Assembly: GCA_042217555.1 (NCBI GenBank)
Contig: JBDGSL010000010.1
Location: forward strand, 1-16,363
DNA from: Candidatus Nanohalobium sp.
Lineage (GTDB): Archaea; Nanohalarchaeota; Nanosalinia; Nanosalinales; Nanosalinaceae
Direction of reading: 5' to 3'
Length of the DNA stretch: 16,363 nucleotides
Every line of letters begins with the position of its first letter. Positions within the stretch are counted from its first letter, which is position 1. This document shows positions 4,774 through 14,842 of this stretch, piece after piece. The notes below the pieces were generated by a model. It was not told the origin of the DNA, ran no database searches, and saw nothing but the letters and a program-made list of their open reading frames with translations. The translations under genes and the position numbers were made by a program.

Positions 4774-5430
4774 TTACTGGTTTTGGAACAGTTCGTCGAG
4801 TTTGTTTTTGTGTTTGGATGGGCCGATGAGTATTATTGAGTCGTCTTTTTCGAGTTCTGTTTCGGGTTCTGCGTTGAGTGTTTCGTCTTTTTTTATGATT
4901 GAGGCAACGGTGAAGTCTTCCGGGAATTTTTTCCTGTGTCGCAGCTGTTTTACTGTTTTGCCGTTGAGTGTTCCTTCTGTGATCTTGGCTTTCAGTACTT
5001 CTCTTTCTCCCGGCAGGTTTGCGAGTTTGACGAGGTAGGGGTGTTCTACTGCTGATAGAAATTCGGAGAGCAGAAGGTCTGTGTGGCCTATGGCATGGGT
5101 GTCTATTATCTGGAATGCTTCGAAGTATTCGTCATCTTCCATCCTGGATATGACTTTGGGGACGCCGTATTTTTTGGCAAGGCTGCATACCACCATGTTT
5201 TCGTTGTCGTCTTTAAGGGTTGATATCATGATGTCTGCCTGTGTTATCCCTGCGTCTTCAAGCGCTGAAAGGTCCGAAGGTGATTTGTTTATCACGGTAG
5301 CTCCTGTGGATGAGTAAAGTCTTTTACAGCGGTCTTCGTCAGCGTCTATCACGACAAGGTCGTGTTTTCCTTCCAGCCTGTCCACAAGTTTTTTCGACAG
5401 GGTGTTGATACCGGTTATGACTATGTACAT
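4774..5430 (-). CDS. trkA: TrkA/KtrA-type RCK regulatory subunit of K+ uptake
   Basis: RCK-N (VVID.D, L..AGI..AD, T.DD..N...C.LAK.YGV..VI.R) plus RCK-C. ATG 5430 overlaps the trkH stop as TGATG; GTG 5433 is an alternative start. Confidence 0.85.
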   Translation of the reverse strand: MYIVITGINTLSKKLVDRLEGKHDLVVIDADEDRCKRLYSSTGATVINKSPSDLSALEDAGITQADIMISTLKDDNENMVVCSLAKKYGVPKVISRMEDDEYFEAFQIIDTHAIGHTDLLLSEFLSAVEHPYLVKLANLPGEREVLKAKITEGTLNGKTVKQLRHRKKFPEDFTVASIIKKDETLNAEPETELEKDDSIILIGPSKHKNKLDELFQNQ

Positions 5431-6842
5431 CACTTTGAATCTGGGAAGATGCTCCTATTAAAAATTGCCAGTACCGGCAGCATCTCAAGTCGACCGGCAA
5501 GCATCAGAAATATCCAGACAAACTTGCTGGCCCAGGTAAGTTGCTGCATCTCCGCCCCCGACATATATACAGGCCCCATATTACCTGCGGCAGAGACTAC
5601 ACCGGAAAGAGCTGCTGCCAGGCTTATATCATCGAACAGAAGAGTCAGCAAGGTGCCGATGAAGATGAATCCTATCCACGTGAAGAACAGTACGGCCACA
5701 GTGTGCAACGCTGAACGGTCAAGTATCTCCTCATCAAGTTTTACTTCGTTTATAGCTGTTTCAGGCAGGCTGTAGGATCTTAAACGTGTTTTAACCATTT
5801 CAATAAGTGTTTTAAGACGGAAGATCTTTACTCCTCCTGATGTGGATCCAACTGACCCTCCTACGAACATAACTCCTATTACTGCCATCTGCAGTACAGC
5901 TGAGAAGGCCATCACAGACATGGTGCCGTAACCTGTAGAGGATATGATCGAGGCAGCCTGGAAGACAGCGTCTAGAAATCTTCCAGCTCCAAGATCCAGT
6001 ATCATCGCCAGAGATACCAGTATGAATATCTGGCCGTAAAGCTTGAACTCGGAGTTTCTGAGGGCTTCTCCCTCGCCCTGAAATAGTTTGTAAAGTATTG
6101 CAAAGTTGGTGCCTCCTAACAGCATGAACGGTATCGTTGCTGCCTGAACAGTCTCTGAGAAGTATCCGATACTGGCTGAGTGCGTTGAGAAACCGCCTGT
6201 GGAAAGCCCGGAGAAAGCATGCAGAACCGAGTCGAACACTGGCATACCCAGAGCTATATAGGTACCTATCATGACAGAGGTGATGAAGCCGTAGACTCGC
6301 CAGAGCTCAGTTATAGACTTTTTAAGTGAAGGTCTTATTGAGCCAGGGTCGGACTTGTGTGTCTCTGCTGTGAAAAGCCTCCGGGAGATACCTCCTGACT
6401 CACGGATAACGGCTATGAAGAACGTCAGTATTCCAAGGCCGCCTACCCACTGCATAAGGCTCCTCCAGAACAGAAGTGAACGTGGAAGGCTCTCCGGCTT
6501 CAAAACCATGGAGATTCCTGTAGTCGTCAATCCTGCCGATGCCTCAAAAAAAGCATCCACAAAACCCAGCTCGGGGACGAACGGCAGACCGCTCAGTATC
6601 ACCGCTATACTCCATCCAAGTACCGTGGAGACCATAGCCTCCCGGACGGAAGGGTTAGAACCATTTCCTGACCACTTCATAACAAGACCTGCCAGAAAAG
6701 AGGATAAAGCAGCAACAAGAAACGGGTAAAGCCTGGAAAACGGTTCAGAGTAGTACAGACCTGTCAGAAAAGGAAGTACAAGTATGGCTGAAAACACCAG
6801 CATAAACCGGCCCATTATCCTCGAAACTACCTTCGGCCTCAT
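5430..6842 (-). CDS. trkH: TrkH-family K+ uptake membrane protein
   Basis: Four pore loops (GLTTTG, GLSTGGFS, SSTGYG, GNMGP), LLFWRSLMQWVGGLG, GGSVGSTSGGVKIFR, MLAGRLE. Confidence 0.93.
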   Translation of the reverse strand: MRPKVVSRIMGRFMLVFSAILVLPFLTGLYYSEPFSRLYPFLVAALSSFLAGLVMKWSGNGSNPSVREAMVSTVLGWSIAVILSGLPFVPELGFVDAFFEASAGLTTTGISMVLKPESLPRSLLFWRSLMQWVGGLGILTFFIAVIRESGGISRRLFTAETHKSDPGSIRPSLKKSITELWRVYGFITSVMIGTYIALGMPVFDSVLHAFSGLSTGGFSTHSASIGYFSETVQAATIPFMLLGGTNFAILYKLFQGEGEALRNSEFKLYGQIFILVSLAMILDLGAGRFLDAVFQAASIISSTGYGTMSVMAFSAVLQMAVIGVMFVGGSVGSTSGGVKIFRLKTLIEMVKTRLRSYSLPETAINEVKLDEEILDRSALHTVAVLFFTWIGFIFIGTLLTLLFDDISLAAALSGVVSAAGNMGPVYMSGAEMQQLTWASKFVWIFLMLAGRLEMLPVLAIFNRSIFPDSK

Positions 6843-7350: not shown

Positions 7351-8538
7351 ATGTCAAAGATACCGGAAGTAAACATCGGCCTTGTAGGCCACGTCGACCA
7401 TGGGAAGACGACACTCACTCAAGCTCTCTCAGGACAATGGACAGACCAGCACAGTGAGGAACTTGAGAGAGGGATCACCATCAGGATAGGATACGCCGAC
7501 ATCACATACTACAGCAATGACGGCGAACTGAACGTCGAAGGAGAAGGTGAAGAGGAGAGAACTGTCTCACTGGTTGATGCTCCAGGCCACGAAACACTGA
7601 TGGCTAACGTCCTTTCTGGAGCAGCTATCATGGATGGCGCAGTACTTCTGGTAGCAGCTGACGAAGAAGTTCCACAGCCTCAGACACGTGAACACCTTGC
7701 AGCGCTTGACATAGTTGGCATTGATAATATTGTAATCGCACAGAACAAGATAGATCTGGTCTCTGAAGAAAAGGCAAGAGAGAACTATGAACAGATCAGG
7801 GAGTTTGTTGAGGGGACTGTCGCAGAGGACGCACCTGTAGTCCCTATCAGTGCGCAGCACGAGGTCAATATAGATGCGCTTCTAGAAGCCATTGATGAGG
7901 AGATTCCAACTCCGGAGCGTGACCTGGATTCTGATCCACGTATGCTTGTCGCCCGTTCATTCGATACCAACAAGCCGGGAACTTCGCCCAAAGAACTTAG
8001 AGGCGGTGTCGTAGGAGGTTCACTTGTTAGAGGAGAGCTTGAAGAAGGAGAGAAAGTGGAACTCAAACCAGGCGTCAGGAAGGACGGTGAAAACTTTGAA
8101 ACTGTTACGACTGAGGTGAAGAGCATAATACAGGGAGATACACCTGTCGAAAAAGGAAGACCTGGAGGTTTACTCGGAGTTGAGACAGATCTGGATCCGG
8201 CGATGGTCAAGTCCGACGGGCTCGCGGGAAATGTTCTCGGCCTGGAAGGAGAACTACCTGACGTAACTGATACGGTAGAGATCAAGGCAGAGCTTATGGA
8301 CCGTCTTGCCGGCGCTGAACAAGAAGAAGAGATAGACAACATCAGAGAACACGAAGCATTGATGCTTAACATAGGAACCACCAAGACTGCTGGTGTAGTC
8401 ACACAGGCCGGCAAGCACGTCAGACTGAATCTGAAGATGCCTGTCTGCGTAGAGGAAGGAGACAGAGTGGCGATTTCACGTCAGATAGGCTCTCGATGGC
8501 GGCTTATCGGCCACGGCAGGATAAACTCGATCGAATAA
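7351..8538 (+). CDS. eif2g: Translation initiation factor aIF2 gamma subunit
   Basis: PEVNIGLVGHVDHGKTT, RGITIRIGYAD, DAPGHE, PQPQTREHL, NKID, RSFD.NKPG, GGVVGGS, RWRLIGHG. Confidence 0.97.
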   Translation: MSKIPEVNIGLVGHVDHGKTTLTQALSGQWTDQHSEELERGITIRIGYADITYYSNDGELNVEGEGEEERTVSLVDAPGHETLMANVLSGAAIMDGAVLLVAADEEVPQPQTREHLAALDIVGIDNIVIAQNKIDLVSEEKARENYEQIREFVEGTVAEDAPVVPISAQHEVNIDALLEAIDEEIPTPERDLDSDPRMLVARSFDTNKPGTSPKELRGGVVGGSLVRGELEEGEKVELKPGVRKDGENFETVTTEVKSIIQGDTPVEKGRPGGLLGVETDLDPAMVKSDGLAGNVLGLEGELPDVTDTVEIKAELMDRLAGAEQEEEIDNIREHEALMLNIGTTKTAGVVTQAGKHVRLNLKMPVCVEEGDRVAISRQIGSRWRLIGHGRINSIE

Positions 8539-8578: not shown

Positions 8579-10156
8579 ATGGCCGACATTCTAAGCTCTC
8601 TCCTAGGATTTATCCACAGTGAACAGCCCGTGGTCCGTATACTGGTAGCTCTTGCATTTCTGATTGCAGGGCATCTCACGGTAAAGATATTCAGGATGCT
8701 TACACGTCGAACATGGATGCACAGAACAGAAGAAGCGACGAAGAAAGACATAGAGAGGAGGGAGGAAAAACTCGGCCTGGTATCAAACATACTCGACGGA
8801 GGGATAATAACGACAGCCATAATCTACCTCAACTCCGGTATCAGCACAGATATAATAAGCAAGGTATCGGAAAGCAGCCCACGTATCGTCTCCGCACTCC
8901 TCGTAGGTTTTCTGGGCATCATCCTTATCAGGATAGTTACAAAGGTGTTTGAAGGATTTCTCACTACTGTAGGGGTAAACAACTACCTCAGAGACATCGG
9001 TCTTTCCAGAAGCGCATCCAATGTGCTCTCAGCAGCTGTAAAGATCCTGATGTACATAGTGCTTTTCCAGGTAGTACTTAACCAGCTTAACGTCGGCTAC
9101 ACCTATCTTAACGAGCTGCTTACAGCCGCTACATGGGCCTTTGCTTTCATGATGGCAGGGATCGTATTCTACTCTCTCAAAGACCTGTTCCAGAACATGG
9201 CCGCCGGTTTCTACCTGAAGAACTCCCGTCTCGTACGGAAAGGTGAGGAAGTCAAAGTCGAAGGAGATACAGGAGAGATCAAAGAAGTCTCTCTGTTCTC
9301 CACCTCAGTAAACACGGACTCGGGATATACACTGTTGACACCGAACACCCAGTTGATGGACTCTCCTCTAAGAATCAAGAGAACCCAGAGCGACCTTGAA
9401 ACACTGGAGGATATAACAAGCTACTTTGTCGCTCAGAACCCGTCTTACTGCGGCCCGGCCTCTGCCGAGATGGCACTGGAGATATTCGGATACCGACACG
9501 ACCAGGAAGAGATCGGTGAAAAAGCCGATGTCGAGGAAGGGGAAGGAGTTGACGAAGATGACCTGATGGACGCCATCGAGGAATTGACGAACAACGAGGT
9601 CAGAACAGCCTGGATAGGATACGACAACATCACGGACCTGGAAGACGAGTACAAATCATGGTTCAACGATGGAGCACTGATAGTATCGAACTTCTACAAG
9701 CCTGAAATCTTCCCTGACGCATCCGCAGGACACTTTGTGCTTTCCGTAGGGGTAGAGGGAGATGAAATACTTAACCTGGATCCTTCAGGAACGAACGGTG
9801 GAGTATACTACGTCAACAAAGAAACGTTCTACGACGCGATGGCAGAGTTCGGCCACAAGAGAGGTTACATCGTCGTGGCACCGAAAGGAACCACAGCATA
9901 CTGGAGGATCAAGAACGACCTGATCTACGGCGACAAGAGCCTGTACGACGAACTTTCCAAAACACTCGAGTCAAGGCTACGTAAGATAATGAGGAAAGGA
10001 AGAATACTGAAGAACTCCACACCAGAATCCATGGAGAAATACATGGAGGACTGGACGTCTGAGGAGAAACTGACACGTGTATGGAAGCCGGAAGGCTTCT
10101 CAGGGGAAAAAGAAAAACTGGAGGGGGATGAAGATGAGACTACTGAAGATAACTGA
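8579..10156 (+). CDS. MscS-family mechanosensitive channel fused to a C-terminal papain-like (C39/phytochelatin-synthase-like) Cys-His-Asp domain
   Basis: Multi-TM N-terminus, then the MscS core KDLFQNMAAGFYL....VRKGEEVKVEGDTGEIKEVSLFSTSV.T.SG....PN..L, then Q286-NPSY-C291-GPAS, G-H385-F, LNL-D401-P. Confidence 0.85.
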   Translation: MADILSSLLGFIHSEQPVVRILVALAFLIAGHLTVKIFRMLTRRTWMHRTEEATKKDIERREEKLGLVSNILDGGIITTAIIYLNSGISTDIISKVSESSPRIVSALLVGFLGIILIRIVTKVFEGFLTTVGVNNYLRDIGLSRSASNVLSAAVKILMYIVLFQVVLNQLNVGYTYLNELLTAATWAFAFMMAGIVFYSLKDLFQNMAAGFYLKNSRLVRKGEEVKVEGDTGEIKEVSLFSTSVNTDSGYTLLTPNTQLMDSPLRIKRTQSDLETLEDITSYFVAQNPSYCGPASAEMALEIFGYRHDQEEIGEKADVEEGEGVDEDDLMDAIEELTNNEVRTAWIGYDNITDLEDEYKSWFNDGALIVSNFYKPEIFPDASAGHFVLSVGVEGDEILNLDPSGTNGGVYYVNKETFYDAMAEFGHKRGYIVVAPKGTTAYWRIKNDLIYGDKSLYDELSKTLESRLRKIMRKGRILKNSTPESMEKYMEDWTSEEKLTRVWKPEGFSGEKEKLEGDEDETTEDN

Positions 10157-10952
10157 CGGCCAGAGAAACCTAGAGAAACTTGACGAGTACTTCGAAGAAG
10201 TGGTTTCTGAAGATCTTGAGAAGATTGCACCTTCAATAGTAGGAAAGAAAATAGATGTTGCTATCAATTCAGAGTCTTTGACTAACTTTGATGCCGTCTT
10301 TGTTGAGATACCGGTTGAAAACGCTGTTTTTGGCAGAGTAATGCTTGAAGTAATGGAGGAGCGAGGAGTACCTGTAAACTACTCTTCAACCTCTTTCTTT
10401 GCGATGGCGAAGAAAAACTATCTCTACAGCGTACTTCACGAAAGAGACATCCCAACGCCTAAGACAGCTGTTGTGGCAGATGAAAAAGCTGCAAGAAATC
10501 TTGAAAACTATCTTAAAGGCCCACTGGTCGCAAGAAAGTTTGAAGAGTTGAAAGAGTCGGAGAAGAAAAAAATAGATACTGTAGAGGAAATAGGAGAGTT
10601 TACGGAGGGTGTAGAGTATGGAGAAAACTTTCTCCTGTTTCAGGAGTATTCAAAGGGATCTAAATATCGTTGTCTTGTAGTAGGAGATGATGTCGTTTCC
10701 TTAGAGGATACTTCCGAACACTGGTCTATCGGCAAGGAGAAGCTTAGGTATTCTAATGCTCCAAGCGATGTTGAAGAAGTTGTGCTTGATGCTAAAAACT
10801 CACTCGGCACACGAATGGCCGAAGTACTTATCAGAAACGAAGAGGTCGTAGACGTTAACCCGAATCCGGACCTTGAAATGTACTCTGATATCTCGGGAAA
10901 GGATGTATACAAAATCGTAGCGGACTCGTTGAAACAGGAGGTAGAAGGATAG
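10134..10952 (+). CDS. RimK-like ATP-grasp fold protein, catalytic motifs degenerate
   Basis: FDAVFV, K..LY..L....IPTPKT, FQEY, YRCLVVGD, DVNPNP align with RimK. Start moved to ATG 10134, which has GAGGGG 7 nt upstream. Confidence 0.75.
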   Translation: MRLLKITDGQRNLEKLDEYFEEVVSEDLEKIAPSIVGKKIDVAINSESLTNFDAVFVEIPVENAVFGRVMLEVMEERGVPVNYSSTSFFAMAKKNYLYSVLHERDIPTPKTAVVADEKAARNLENYLKGPLVARKFEELKESEKKKIDTVEEIGEFTEGVEYGENFLLFQEYSKGSKYRCLVVGDDVVSLEDTSEHWSIGKEKLRYSNAPSDVEEVVLDAKNSLGTRMAEVLIRNEEVVDVNPNPDLEMYSDISGKDVYKIVADSLKQEVEG

Positions 10953-11834
10953 ATGAAGTTCGCCATAATATACGGCGATGTCTCAACCACACACCGGTTA
11001 ATTATAGAGGAAGCGGAAGAGATATTTGATTCTGTGCTGGCAGCGCCTGTTGAAGGCTTGAAGTTTGTCCACAGCTCTGAAGGAAGCAAGGTGCTCTACA
11101 AGGATACGGATCTTACAGAGTTTGATGCAGTATATGTAAGGACCAACGACCAGGATGCATTATTCTCTGAACATCTTGTAGAGGTGTTGAATGAAGCAGG
11201 AGTTGTCACTCAGGCCGAGGATGAGTCCTTCGCATATTCAAATAACAAGTTTTACAGTATGAAGATCCTTTCGGAGAACAATGTTAATGTTCCGGATAGT
11301 TTCTACACTATCTCACCTGAAACTGCCGTTGATGCCGCTGAAAGACTCGGCTATCCGATAATCATGAAGACTATCGGTGGCGCCGGCGGCCAGGGAGTGA
11401 TGAGAGCCGGTTCGGAAAACGAGTTGAAGCCGGTCATGGACACGATGAAAGCATTTGAGCAGGACATCTGTCTTCAAGAGTATCAGGAACACGGAGGCAC
11501 AGATACAAGAGCAATTGTTATAGGGGATGAAATATTCGCTTACCGCAGATCCAGCAGCGGCGACGAGTGGCGTTCAAATGTAGCAGAAGGAGGCGAGAGA
11601 AAAGAAGCAGACCCGACCCCTGAGATGGAGGAAGCCGCGTTAACCGCAGCTAGAGCTTCAGGCTTCGATATATGTGGAGTAGACGTTATACAAACTGATG
11701 AAGAAGTCTATATCCTCGAACTGAACAGTGCCTTCGGCCTCTACAAAGCCATAAACGAGACCGTCGGAGAAAACGTTATCCTAAGGTTGGTGGAAAGAAT
11801 GCATGAAAGAGCGATGGAGGCGAACCAGGATTGA
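10953..11834 (+). CDS. RimK/LysX-family ATP-grasp amino-acid (probably glutamate) ligase
   Basis: FDAVYVR, NKF, PIIMKTIGGAGGQGV, CLQEY, DTRAIVIG, WRSNVAEGG, GVD, LELNS. Confidence 0.9.
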   Translation: MKFAIIYGDVSTTHRLIIEEAEEIFDSVLAAPVEGLKFVHSSEGSKVLYKDTDLTEFDAVYVRTNDQDALFSEHLVEVLNEAGVVTQAEDESFAYSNNKFYSMKILSENNVNVPDSFYTISPETAVDAAERLGYPIIMKTIGGAGGQGVMRAGSENELKPVMDTMKAFEQDICLQEYQEHGGTDTRAIVIGDEIFAYRRSSSGDEWRSNVAEGGERKEADPTPEMEEAALTAARASGFDICGVDVIQTDEEVYILELNSAFGLYKAINETVGENVILRLVERMHERAMEANQD

Positions 11835-12862
11835 AGACCGGCCTCGAACTGGAGTTCTGGGTCATCGACGAGAAAGGAGAACTTGACTACGCCAAGCCTG
11901 TAGCTGAAAGAGTATACTTCGCCTCACAGGAATTCTCACGCTCAATGATAGAAATACAGACAGAACCACATGAGGATGTAGAAGAACTGCTGAAAGAGGC
12001 CATCTCCAAGACAGAGATTCTGGCAGAACTAGCCAAGAAAGACGGCAAAAGAATAGTGCCTCTCGGAACACCGCTCAACTCGGGAAAAGTAGAGGTATAC
12101 GAATCCGAGAGATTTCAGATAGAACAGGAGGTAATAGGGCATGAAGTAAAACACGCGGGCAGGACTGCAGGCTTCCACTTACACTTCGAAAAAGAAGACG
12201 TATTGAGACAACTGAACACACTCACAGCTCTAGATCCACTCTTAGCCCTGACCAACGCCTCACCGCTTTATCAGGGAGAGAAGATCGCCTATGGATGCAG
12301 AAACAAGGTCTACAGACACAAGGCCTGCGGAGCATTCCCTGAGCAGAGAGAACTCTGGCCCTACATGGACTCGATCACAGAATGGCGCGAAAAAAGAGAG
12401 GAACTATTCGAGAAATTCGAAAACGAGGCCGAGAAGAAGGGAATAAAACCGGAAAGATTTGAAAGATTCTTCCAGCCGGAAAACGCTGTCTGGACGCCTG
12501 TAAAGCTGAGAGAGGACTACCCGACAGTTGAATGGCGAGCTCCAGACACCACACTCCTCACTGAAGTGATCAAACTTGTGAAGGCTGTCAAACCGATAGT
12601 CCAGAAAAAGAAGAGATCAGAACTACCAGAGTTCGAGAAAGTGAAGAACTTGTCAGAGAAGGCGATAGATAAAGGACTTCGATCCGGAGAAGTCAGAGAA
12701 TACATCGAAGAAATGGGTGTAGAGCACTCAAAGTTCTCTCCTCTCTCACAGCGGCTTGATCTCCCGGAAAAAGTCAGCAGGGAGAAGGCAAGAGAAGTGA
12801 GGCTGGACGTAGCTGAAAGATTGACCGAAGACCTGGAAGAAGCCAAAGAAATGATAAATTAA
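11831..12862 (+). CDS. Glutamate-cysteine ligase family 2 (GCS2/YbdK-like) carboxylate-amine ligase
   Basis: GLELEFWVID, QEF....IEIQT, GTPL, AGFHLHF, LALTNASPLYQG, W.PV..R....TVEWRAPD; TTG start in a TTGA overlap, with GGAGG upstream. Confidence 0.85.
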   Translation: MKTGLELEFWVIDEKGELDYAKPVAERVYFASQEFSRSMIEIQTEPHEDVEELLKEAISKTEILAELAKKDGKRIVPLGTPLNSGKVEVYESERFQIEQEVIGHEVKHAGRTAGFHLHFEKEDVLRQLNTLTALDPLLALTNASPLYQGEKIAYGCRNKVYRHKACGAFPEQRELWPYMDSITEWREKREELFEKFENEAEKKGIKPERFERFFQPENAVWTPVKLREDYPTVEWRAPDTTLLTEVIKLVKAVKPIVQKKKRSELPEFEKVKNLSEKAIDKGLRSGEVREYIEEMGVEHSKFSPLSQRLDLPEKVSREKAREVRLDVAERLTEDLEEAKEMIN

Positions 12863-13776
12863 AGCTGTTGGAAGGCCTCAACCAGCGAATCCATCACAGG
12901 CACCAGCTGTTCCTTCATCTCCTCATCACCGTAGAAACCAATTCCTGGCTTCGAGTTCAGCTCCACAATCCACGGCTCTCCATCCTCGTCGAAGAACAGG
13001 TCTACCGAGAAGAGGCAGGGCCTGTAGTCGAGTTCTTCATTGACCCTGTCAATTATATCCAGGGCCTTTTCCGGGAACTCTTCAGGACTGACTGCGTGCT
13101 GAGAACCTCCCTGTGAAACGTTGCTTATCTCGCCGTCGCTGTATCTCACGTAACCAGCCTTCAATTCGCCGTTAACGACTATACCTCTCAGATCGTGCGT
13201 TCCTTCAACGATACCTTCGATTCCAGAGCTGCTGTCAACAAATCTCTGGACGATATACTCCTCTTCTATCTCCGGTATATCCTCCTCGCTGTCGACTATG
13301 TGTATTCCTTTACCGCCGAAAGCGTAGCAGGGTTTCAGCACGATTTTTCCATACTGCTCCAGCATCTCACGCGCATTTTCTTCTGAGAAAGGTCTGGTCT
13401 CCGGCATCATTTCAGGAAAACGCTCGTAAGTCAGCAGTTTATCTTTACAGAGTTCCTCCAGCCCGGGATCGTTCAGGATTCCGATGCTCTCACTGATCTC
13501 CTGTTTGAAGGCCTTGGTCTCCTCATCGAAGTGGAACTTGTCGAAAACACCGTCAAGCTCAATATCCTCTACTTTCCTCCAGGAACCGTCCTCGCATACC
13601 CAGCCTCTGGAAAGATTCCCGTTTTCATACCAGTGATATTGAGCCTGTACAAGCCTCACGTCCTGGCCTTCGGCTCTTTCAGAGAAATAACCGTATGACC
13701 TGTTTGACTGTCCGTCGAAAGGCTTTTCTCCATCCCAGGTAACTTCTTCATCCCATAAAACACCGATATTCTTCAT
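12859..13776 (-). CDS. ATP-grasp ligase (RimK/GshB/YheCD-like), convergent with the cluster
   Basis: CKDK..TY, MPET, VLKP..AFGGKGI, YIVQRFV, HDLR, SNVSQGG, SVD, IVELNSKPG. Confidence 0.85.
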   Translation of the reverse strand: MKNIGVLWDEEVTWDGEKPFDGQSNRSYGYFSERAEGQDVRLVQAQYHWYENGNLSRGWVCEDGSWRKVEDIELDGVFDKFHFDEETKAFKQEISESIGILNDPGLEELCKDKLLTYERFPEMMPETRPFSEENAREMLEQYGKIVLKPCYAFGGKGIHIVDSEEDIPEIEEEYIVQRFVDSSSGIEGIVEGTHDLRGIVVNGELKAGYVRYSDGEISNVSQGGSQHAVSPEEFPEKALDIIDRVNEELDYRPCLFSVDLFFDEDGEPWIVELNSKPGIGFYGDEEMKEQLVPVMDSLVEAFQQL

Positions 13777-13827: not shown

Positions 13828-14247
13828 ATGACACGCGAAATCATACTAGACACCAACTTCCTGACAGCACCCTTCCAGCTCGACTCCATCGACATATTCC
13901 AGGAACTCGAAAGAGTCTTCCCCAACTCCAAAATCTACACAATCGACGACGCAGTACAGGAAGCCAAAAGCATAGAACAAGGCAAATACGGCAACCTCGT
14001 AGAGAAACTGATAGAGAAGAAAGACATCGAAGTACTGGAAACAGAGGACGAAGAACCAAGTTCTTCTCGTACAGTAGAGGGAGAAGGCAGCGTAGACGAC
14101 CTACTAGTACAGATCTCCCGGGACTATGTTGTTGCGACGAACGACAAAGAGCTGAAGGAGAGACTGATAGAAGTCGATGCAGAAGTTATTCATATCAGAA
14201 ATGAGAGCTATCTAGAAGTACTGAACAGGAAAGATCCTGGGTTCTAA
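13828..14247 (+). CDS. PIN-domain protein (Fcf1/Utp24-like, the one normally following aIF2gamma)
   Basis: IILDTNFL, V.QE, VDD.L, VVATNDKELKERL; syntenic position upstream of rpoE'. Confidence 0.88.
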   Translation: MTREIILDTNFLTAPFQLDSIDIFQELERVFPNSKIYTIDDAVQEAKSIEQGKYGNLVEKLIEKKDIEVLETEDEEPSSSRTVEGEGSVDDLLVQISRDYVVATNDKELKERLIEVDAEVIHIRNESYLEVLNRKDPGF

Positions 14248-14768
14248 TTAGTCAAATTTTAGACAAATTATTAATAAGAAGATTTGGCGAAAACAGCCAA
14301 GTCGGCGCCAAACCTATAAAAGACCTAGAAGACGATTTAAAAGAACTAATTAGCGAGTACAAAGATGAAGAAGAGTTAGCACATAAATTTCTAGATCTGG
14401 ATCAGAAGGAACTCGATAAACTACAAAAGATTTTCATCTCACCTGCCCACACTAAAAGAACACAAAAATATGAGGAAGAAGAAAATCTGAAAGAATTCCT
14501 GAATAAAGTCATAGACAAAAAACTACAGCTACTAAAAGCAGGAAAGAAATATTCTGAAAAACTCCTTTCCACCTTAGGAAAAATGCATGAAGACGAAGAA
14601 GAAGCAATTACTATCATAAGAAAATATTATAATCAAAAAGCAGAGGAGGAAACAATGAAACTAATCAAAATGACTGAAAGCGACTACAAAACAGTAAAGC
14701 AAGGTGAAGAACAAATCGAAGCAGGAATTAATGAACTCCAAAATGTGAAGGGGGAGTTAAATTCGTAA
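14247..14768 (+). CDS. Hypothetical AT-rich, charged alpha-helical protein; start uncertain (possible ATT) or 5'-damaged
   Basis: The frame of the 61-aa track ORF is stop-free back to TGA 14202. From ATT 14247 it gives 173 codons, (I)SQILDKLLIRRFGENSQ...KGELNS. No ATG/GTG/TTG occurs before 14583. Confidence 0.55.
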   Translation: MSQILDKLLIRRFGENSQVGAKPIKDLEDDLKELISEYKDEEELAHKFLDLDQKELDKLQKIFISPAHTKRTQKYEEEENLKEFLNKVIDKKLQLLKAGKKYSEKLLSTLGKMHEDEEEAITIIRKYYNQKAEEETMKLIKMTESDYKTVKQGEEQIEAGINELQNVKGELNS

Positions 14769-14842
14769 ATTGCGGCTTTTAATGAAGTCGGTGATTATTG
14801 GTTTGATTAATGGTAGTTTAGAGAACGAGATGGCAGTGACCA

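Follow-up and report, generated by a model that had tools for sequence, protein, structure and literature searches.

The gene cassette described here comes closest in logic to the Pseudomonas RimK-RimB and RloABC systems (PMC11957791, PMC12239564). In the former, RimB takes off the glutamates that RimK adds (PMC11957791). The channel at the head of the cassette is related to the MscS family, whose members include E. coli MscS, the cage-reduced Trypanosoma TcMscS and the MscCG-type glutamate exporters. Glutamate is exported by MscS-type channels (PMC12541555), and channels cut down to the transmembrane helices and the beta-domain are able to gate, as a 165-aa channel with homology ending at the beta-domain does in spheroplasts (PMC8282336). 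The enzyme joined to this channel invites comparison with the soluble phytochelatin synthase of Nostoc (Alr0975 or NsPCS; PDB 2BU3, 6TH5; PF05023) and with the C39 domains of the ABC exporters PCAT1 and ComA, in which, as here, a protease is joined to a membrane transporter.

Within the stretch of Candidatus Nanohalobium sp. DNA that was analysed (16,363 nucleotides of contig JBDGSL010000010.1; hereafter the window), one open frame encodes an MscS-type channel, a papain-fold peptidase domain and a conserved tail (Table 1). The fusion is confirmed as real and conserved. In two runs (from one study, and one of them may be the source of the window) a single contig covers the whole gene, no differences being listed within it, and 206 homologues were found among 7999 scored candidates; the fusion that the initial annotation had read from the sequence is therefore not chimeric. 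The best 120 of these homologues are nearly all of full length (490-535 aa) and come from a nanohaloarchaeon wherever the source names the organism. A library clustered at 50% identity gave 84 matches, 43 of them full-length fusions, of which 29 have an intact catalytic set, and no longer form of the fusion was found among 922 candidates of 920-2625 aa, which is weak evidence against one. Two proteins of 232-236 aa (P0171, P0175) lack the channel, start at the linker helix and consist of an intact peptidase domain plus tail, as stand-alone or split forms.

Table 1. Coordinates of the fusion gene, its parts and the neighbouring cassette genes in the window.
Feature	Positions	Strand	Basis or remark
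eIF2-gamma, upstream cassette boundary	7351..8538	+	Pfam; directly upstream in 56/64 genomes
MscS-type channel + PCS/C39_2-like papain-fold peptidase domain + conserved C-terminal tail	8579..10156	+	open, 525 aa
Membrane part, residues 17-215, five hydrophobic segments	8627..9223	+	hydropathy, AF2 helices, alignment to E. coli MscS 94-175
MscS beta-domain, residues 216-262	9224..9364	+	PF00924 E 1e-7; strands in AF2 model
Papain-fold peptidase domain, residues 282-435	9422..9883	+	Pfam, profile comparison, AF2, Foldseek
Conserved tail, residues 436-505 (helices 439-494, RxWxP motif)	9884..10093	+	column conservation
RimK1, degenerate RimK-type ATP-grasp	10134..10952	+	23-nt overlap with fusion stop
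RimK2, RimK-family alpha-L-glutamate ligase, intact ATP-grasp motifs	10953..11834	+	TIGR00768 144.6 bits, cut-off 143.4
GCS2/YbdK-type carboxylate-amine (gamma-glutamyl) ligase, variable slot	11831..12862	+	PF04107 E 7e-16; TIGR02050 under cut-off
YheC/D-like ATP-grasp ligase, convergent, variable slot	12859..13776	-	PF14398
PIN/FCF1 gene, usual downstream cassette boundary	13828..14247	+	Pfam, relatives' gene order

Hydropathy, the AF2 helices and alignment to E. coli MscS place the equivalent of the pore helix TM3a at residues 174-199 and TM3b at 201-215; TM3b and the beta-domain match E. coli MscS at E 9e-11, and TM3 and the beta-domain of the family are both present. The pore helix is atypical, aligning only with a gap and having no regular Gly/Ala pattern; mechanosensitivity of the fusion is assumed from its family. 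Pfam recognizes MS_channel_1st_1 (residues 91-135), MS_channel_2nd (202-262) and Peptidase_C39_2 (285-402; 29 bits against a cut-off of 24) in the 525-aa protein, plus a Phytochelatin match under the cut-off (E 0.017), and finds no match to the alpha/beta cage (MS_channel_3rd, PF21082). Only about 24 residues, folded as one helix (269-281) in the AF2 model, lie between the beta-domain and Q286, which leaves no space for such a cage; its replacement by an enzyme fold, which distinguishes the fusion from the MscS family, was thus recognized correctly at the outset, as was the set Q286, C291, H385 and D401 (codons at 9434, 9449, 9731 and 9779). The conserved tail was overlooked. Because the MscS beta-domain is cytoplasmic, the peptidase domain should face the cytoplasm. 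A full-length AF2 model (pLDDT 81, pTM 0.45) predicts long helices to residue 215, then the beta-domain, the single linker helix and the peptidase, and helices again in the tail; the individual domains are modelled with confidence, but not the way they are arranged, nor the part of the tail beyond residue 450.

The AF2 model of the peptidase domain (pLDDT 91.7, pTM 0.89) has the papain fold that had been predicted, with Gln, Cys, His and Asp probably placed as in the known enzymes, judging from the aligned fold. Among known structures, Foldseek ranks Alr0975 chains first to eighth (TM 0.77-0.79), followed by PeiR (TM 0.77) and then the C39 domains of PCAT1 and ComA (0.55-0.68). Profile comparison gives a similar order: a profile built from 66 intact domains matches the Nostoc enzyme across 158 of 170 columns (10-167; E 8e-10), PeiR at E 0.007, and ComA/PCAT1 C39 domains at E 0.03-0.08 over about 50 columns. 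The fusion domain shares with NsPCS (TM 0.77-0.80) the order and spacing of the catalytic residues, G323, S403, M421 and the RG(F/Y) motif (G323, K374 at 9698 and R428 at 9860 match positions conserved in PCS), but is only 22-24% identical to it, is fused to a membrane part and does not keep the second-substrate residues. The likeness to PCS claimed initially thus holds for the nearest solved structure, PeiR being nearly as close, but not for Pfam, which files the domain as C39_2: all 66 intact domains match PF13529, with gathering scores exceeded (29-31.9 bits against 24), whereas PF05023 scores stay below theirs (14.8-18.3 against 24.9), with 60 of the 66 matching at E<0.1 (best 9e-9). Atlas models place the C39_2 and PCS clusters at equal distance (TM 0.54-0.58), and hhalign fits the front half of the domain better to small C39_2 proteins (E 9e-19, 112 columns) than to a PCS-like protein (E 1e-11 over 160 columns). 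The domain therefore sits between the C39_2 and PCS families, and its C-terminal end is of PCS type. Unlike PCAT1 and ComA, which are also weaker structural matches, the fusion has an MscS-type channel as partner; a Pfam scan of the 525-aa protein gave no ABC membrane or ATPase domain, and no substrate peptide gene of the C39-exporter kind was seen in the cassette.

Domain and tail are a single-copy feature of the phylum Nanohaloarchaeota, found in 64 of 70 genomes and in 27 of the 28 best assemblies; in one genome without a detected fusion (G039) the RimK genes reach the contig end. The order fusion-RimK1-RimK2 is adjacent in all 64 genomes that hold the domain, and the successive junctions of the operon in the window are 23-nt, 0-nt and 4-nt. 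The G.GG.G loop and RSN motif are present in 35 of 35 RimK2 sequences and 0 of 36 RimK1 sequences. RimK2 scores above the TIGR00768 cut-off, so that a RimK-family ligase is common to this cassette and to RimK-RimB and RloABC; no retropepsin-type peptidase is found among the window's cassette genes. Here, in distinction to those systems, the peptidase is a papain-type cysteine enzyme on a channel, on its cytoplasmic side, accompanied by a dead/live RimK pair and by swappable capping and trimming genes. All parts come from known families, and neither the architecture nor the swappable cassette has been described so far: the open-access literature, with the supplement of PMC10266531, yielded no paper on an MscS-peptidase fusion, nor did we find in open-access print an enzyme that replaces the MscS cage. 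In PMC10266531 the gene, matched to the cassette by gene order, is listed as MscS and its neighbours as GshAB, with C39 unmentioned in the main text; the supplementary data for Ca. Nanohalococcus occultus show the same gene order and an RPKM of 3484, against 3506 for eIF2-gamma. In this symbiotic archaeal phylum, whose genomes are of about 1 Mb, the gene is near-universal, single-copy and transcribed, and it carries only the annotation 'MscS'.

The Q/C/H/D set, intact in the window, has been lost in about half of the phylum, which the initial annotation had not noticed: the 64 genomes split evenly into 32 intact and 32 broken (G011 and G043 were each read from two contigs). Its state follows the neighbouring genes, a covariation that is new here. 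Intact loci carry either GCS2 (13) or a reverse-strand DUF1611-like P-loop gene (18), never both, in 31 of 32 cases, the exception being G067, which has neither; broken loci carry neither gene (0/32), several of them stopping at contig edges before the variable slot. A whole-genome search with the cassette genes found cassette-type GCS2 and DUF1611-like genes absent from all broken genomes, and other GCS2-family genes lie away from the cassette in 3 broken-set genomes (G009, G013, G022) of 41 searched. The eIF2-gamma tree holds 52 of the 64, with G011, G043 and 10 loci that lack a complete eIF2-gamma left out; on it 9 of 10 independent pairs support the covariation and no pair contradicts it (p 0.004); the tree of the fusion itself (60 rows) yields just 4 supported pairs (p 0.125). 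Among loci that reach PIN, a cassette MATCAP/QEGLA metallopeptidase is present in 18 of 23 broken and 0 of 25 intact ones, a separate and different MATCAP occurring elsewhere in 9 intact-set genomes. The YheC/D-like ATP-grasp gene (9/32 intact, 21/32 broken loci) is not tied to the catalytic set. R428 is the arginine of the RG(F/Y) motif, which we take to bind the gamma-glutamyl carboxylate in NsPCS. In a partly redundant set of sequences it is found in 121 of 121 intact but 1 of 42 broken copies, and G323 in all intact but 2 broken ones. The tail is kept either way (conservation 0.68 in intact and 0.70 in broken loci), and the beta-domain is equally conserved in both groups.

The DUF1611-like gene was named from its Atlas neighbours. 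Of 31 metagenome loci seeded on this gene, 16 reach the fusion, and all 16 are intact, though partly from the same organisms. All seven distant loci with scanned neighbours (L207-L211, L213, L214) are arginine operons, with argG before the gene and/or N-acetylornithine carbamoyltransferase and argH after it; a further operon, in G119, reads argG-DUF-argC-argD, and L215 is too short to show neighbours. Position in these operons suggests that the enzyme carries out an amino-acid N-acylation. Members of this P-loop family (~345 aa, RMDAGKTT), which sits beside argG and N-acetylornithine carbamoyltransferase or argC, include L207:3983-5014, L208:3782-4819, L210:1714-2736, L211:961-2112 and L183:5707-6753. 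The cassette thus also leads, by way of bacterial arginine operons, to an enzyme family that has no name in NCBIfam, a candidate to fill a missing acylation or activation step.

Outside the phylum the picture differs. Intact motifs used as seeds in a GTDB scan brought up 66 loci, namely 6 nanohaloarchaeal cassettes and 60 others, titled Woesearchaeota, Aenigmarchaeota, Nanohalarchaeota, Nanobdellota, unnamed archaea and, probably by mislabelling, 'uncultured Methanosarcinales'. None of these 60 has an adjoining RimK gene, their neighbours being unrelated housekeeping genes, and among 50 of the 60 genomes 2 have a DUF1611-like gene and 11 a GCS2 gene, which means that the original substrate must have another source. 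A sample of 201 genomes from one order holds the fusion in 24, intact in 23; behind the sole broken copy (G145) come RimK1, RimK2 and an N-formylglutamate amidohydrolase (FGase). These tallies take in the unpublished genomes G105, G219, G236, G296, G298 and G299, and no claim is based on these alone. In other DPANN, then, the fusion is mostly intact and does not stand beside RimK, and the link to capping genes fails there; the operon link, and with it the tie to neighbouring ligases that had been proposed, is a feature of Nanohaloarchaeota.

Like the fusion, its fold and its operon, the covariation is shown, and it suggests that glutamate peptides are built and trimmed by a system not studied so far. 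Our leading reading, which we hold tentatively and at somewhat less than an even chance, is that the fusion serves as a peptidase anchored to a channel and acts on N-capped glutamyl peptides, the products of GCS2 or the DUF1611-like enzyme together with RimK2, as fold and covariation suggest. A cage-less MscS-type membrane oligomer would carry the PCS-like cysteine peptidase under its pore on the cytoplasmic side, and in Nanohaloarchaeota the fusion would head an operon for glutamate-peptide turnover. GCS2, as a gamma-glutamyl ligase, or the DUF1611-like enzyme, by a probable N-acylation, would provide an N-capped amino acid, to which RimK2, with dead RimK1 as partner, would add alpha-glutamates, as its family membership implies. 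An acyl-enzyme would then form between C291 and the capped end, like that of NsPCS with gamma-Glu-Cys, and be hydrolysed, and the small products might exit via the channel, by analogy with glutamate in MscCG-type channels, or be recycled. Lineages without a capping gene would have lost the whole active site, retaining channel and tail as a scaffold, and would mostly use a metallopeptidase instead (MATCAP, AstE/AspA, FGase). A wider version, an undescribed class of channel-enzyme in which PCS-like peptidases form the cage of an MscS ring, the tail docks the dead/live RimK pair, and a single site produces, cuts and releases capped glutamate peptides that serve as an osmolyte stored in polymer form or as a host-directed signal, with the DUF1611-like protein as the missing acylation enzyme shared with bacterial arginine synthesis, is speculative and unlikely to hold as a whole. 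The covariation with swappable neighbours names candidate substrates, and natural active/inactive pairs inside single genera make the function directly testable.

Other readings fit parts of these data. The fusion might be a RimB-like eraser that trims RimK-made polyglutamate tails of proteins, or free poly-alpha-glutamate, without needing a capped end, MATCAP replacing the domain in other lineages. We consider this unlikely: the removal of RimK-added glutamates by RimB, the complementarity of MATCAP and the intact set, and the setting of the cassette among translation genes all suit it, as does a retropepsin/RimB-like gene that in G084 precedes a dead/live RimK pair, the slot of the fusion here (the same pair is found in G082 and G088), but these three genomes also carry an intact fusion elsewhere, and the tracking of the catalytic set by GCS2 or DUF1611-like genes is left unexplained. 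Rather improbable is a role of the peptidase fold mainly in sensing a ligand or gating the channel, with catalysis optional. Half of the phylum has indeed lost C/H/Q but not the domain, D401 or the tail, and the Ca. Nanohalococcus occultus gene, transcribed at about the eIF2-gamma level in the supplementary data cited above, encodes a protein with a broken set (P0114); however, broken copies lose R428, G323 and the surrounding loop besides the nucleophile, so that the pocket decays together with catalysis.

Still less probable, in our estimate, is peptide scavenging by the symbiont, in which the channel admits host or environmental peptides for digestion by the domain and the nanohaloarchaeal operon was recruited later. 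The nearly always intact fusions among housekeeping genes outside the phylum and the existence of channel-less domain-plus-tail proteins are consistent with such a role, but the distribution is patchy (24/201 in the sampled order), the residues of the narrow PCS-like pocket are invariant, and the covariation is again unaccounted for. The version put forward initially, a glutathione or gamma-Glu-Cys transpeptidase that polymerizes a phytochelatin-like product released on downshock, has NsPCS as top structural match and GCS2 plus two adjoining ATP-grasp ligases, labelled GshAB in PMC10266531, on its side, yet we regard it as the most doubtful. The second-substrate site of NsPCS consists of Arg173, Lys206 and Tyr207, and R152K leaves AtPCS1 with 0.01% of its activity, according to PMC3855540; in the fusion domain Lys374 takes the place of Arg173 (119 of 121 intact copies), and Lys206/Tyr207 align to variable or Gly positions. 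Because these residues are not kept, the domain is, on residue comparison, likelier a hydrolase than a polymerase, which speaks against the proposed polymerization. Glutathione is likewise not the common thread, since the non-ligase DUF1611-like gene replaces GCS2 at 18 of 32 intact loci; the reverse-strand ATP-grasp gene, moreover, is commoner at broken ones.

Several further features of these neighbourhoods were noted. Potassium uptake genes TrkA/TrkH (window 4774-6842) are divergent and stand just upstream of S6e-eIF2-gamma-fusion in most relatives, an osmoregulation neighbourhood. Families f3 and f4 (L041-L054) often have a second short MscS-type gene (~285-330 aa) upstream of S6e, convergent on it, between TrkH and the cassette. 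Between PIN and RpoE1 (window 14250-14770) the sequence is A-rich, low in GC and coding-like, with no ORF of at least 80 aa from a common start; relatives sometimes hold unrelated ORFs there. Unusually long frames occur for eIF2-gamma in L021 and L047 and for TrkH in L027 (937, 1022 and 829 aa), which may reflect inteins, fusions or read-through from upstream. At L180:5402-7673 (G084), L155 and L156, in DPANN genomes with the fusion at another locus, a dead/live RimK pair comes after a retropepsin/RimB-like gene. In the sampled Woesearchaeota-type order a strong RimK match is present in 144 of 201 genomes, most genomes having a RimK with a ~70-aa C-terminal extension (L154, L157-L164), and in Woesearchaeota-type genomes GCS2-family genes adjoin N-formylglutamate amidohydrolase (L169, L171, L175).
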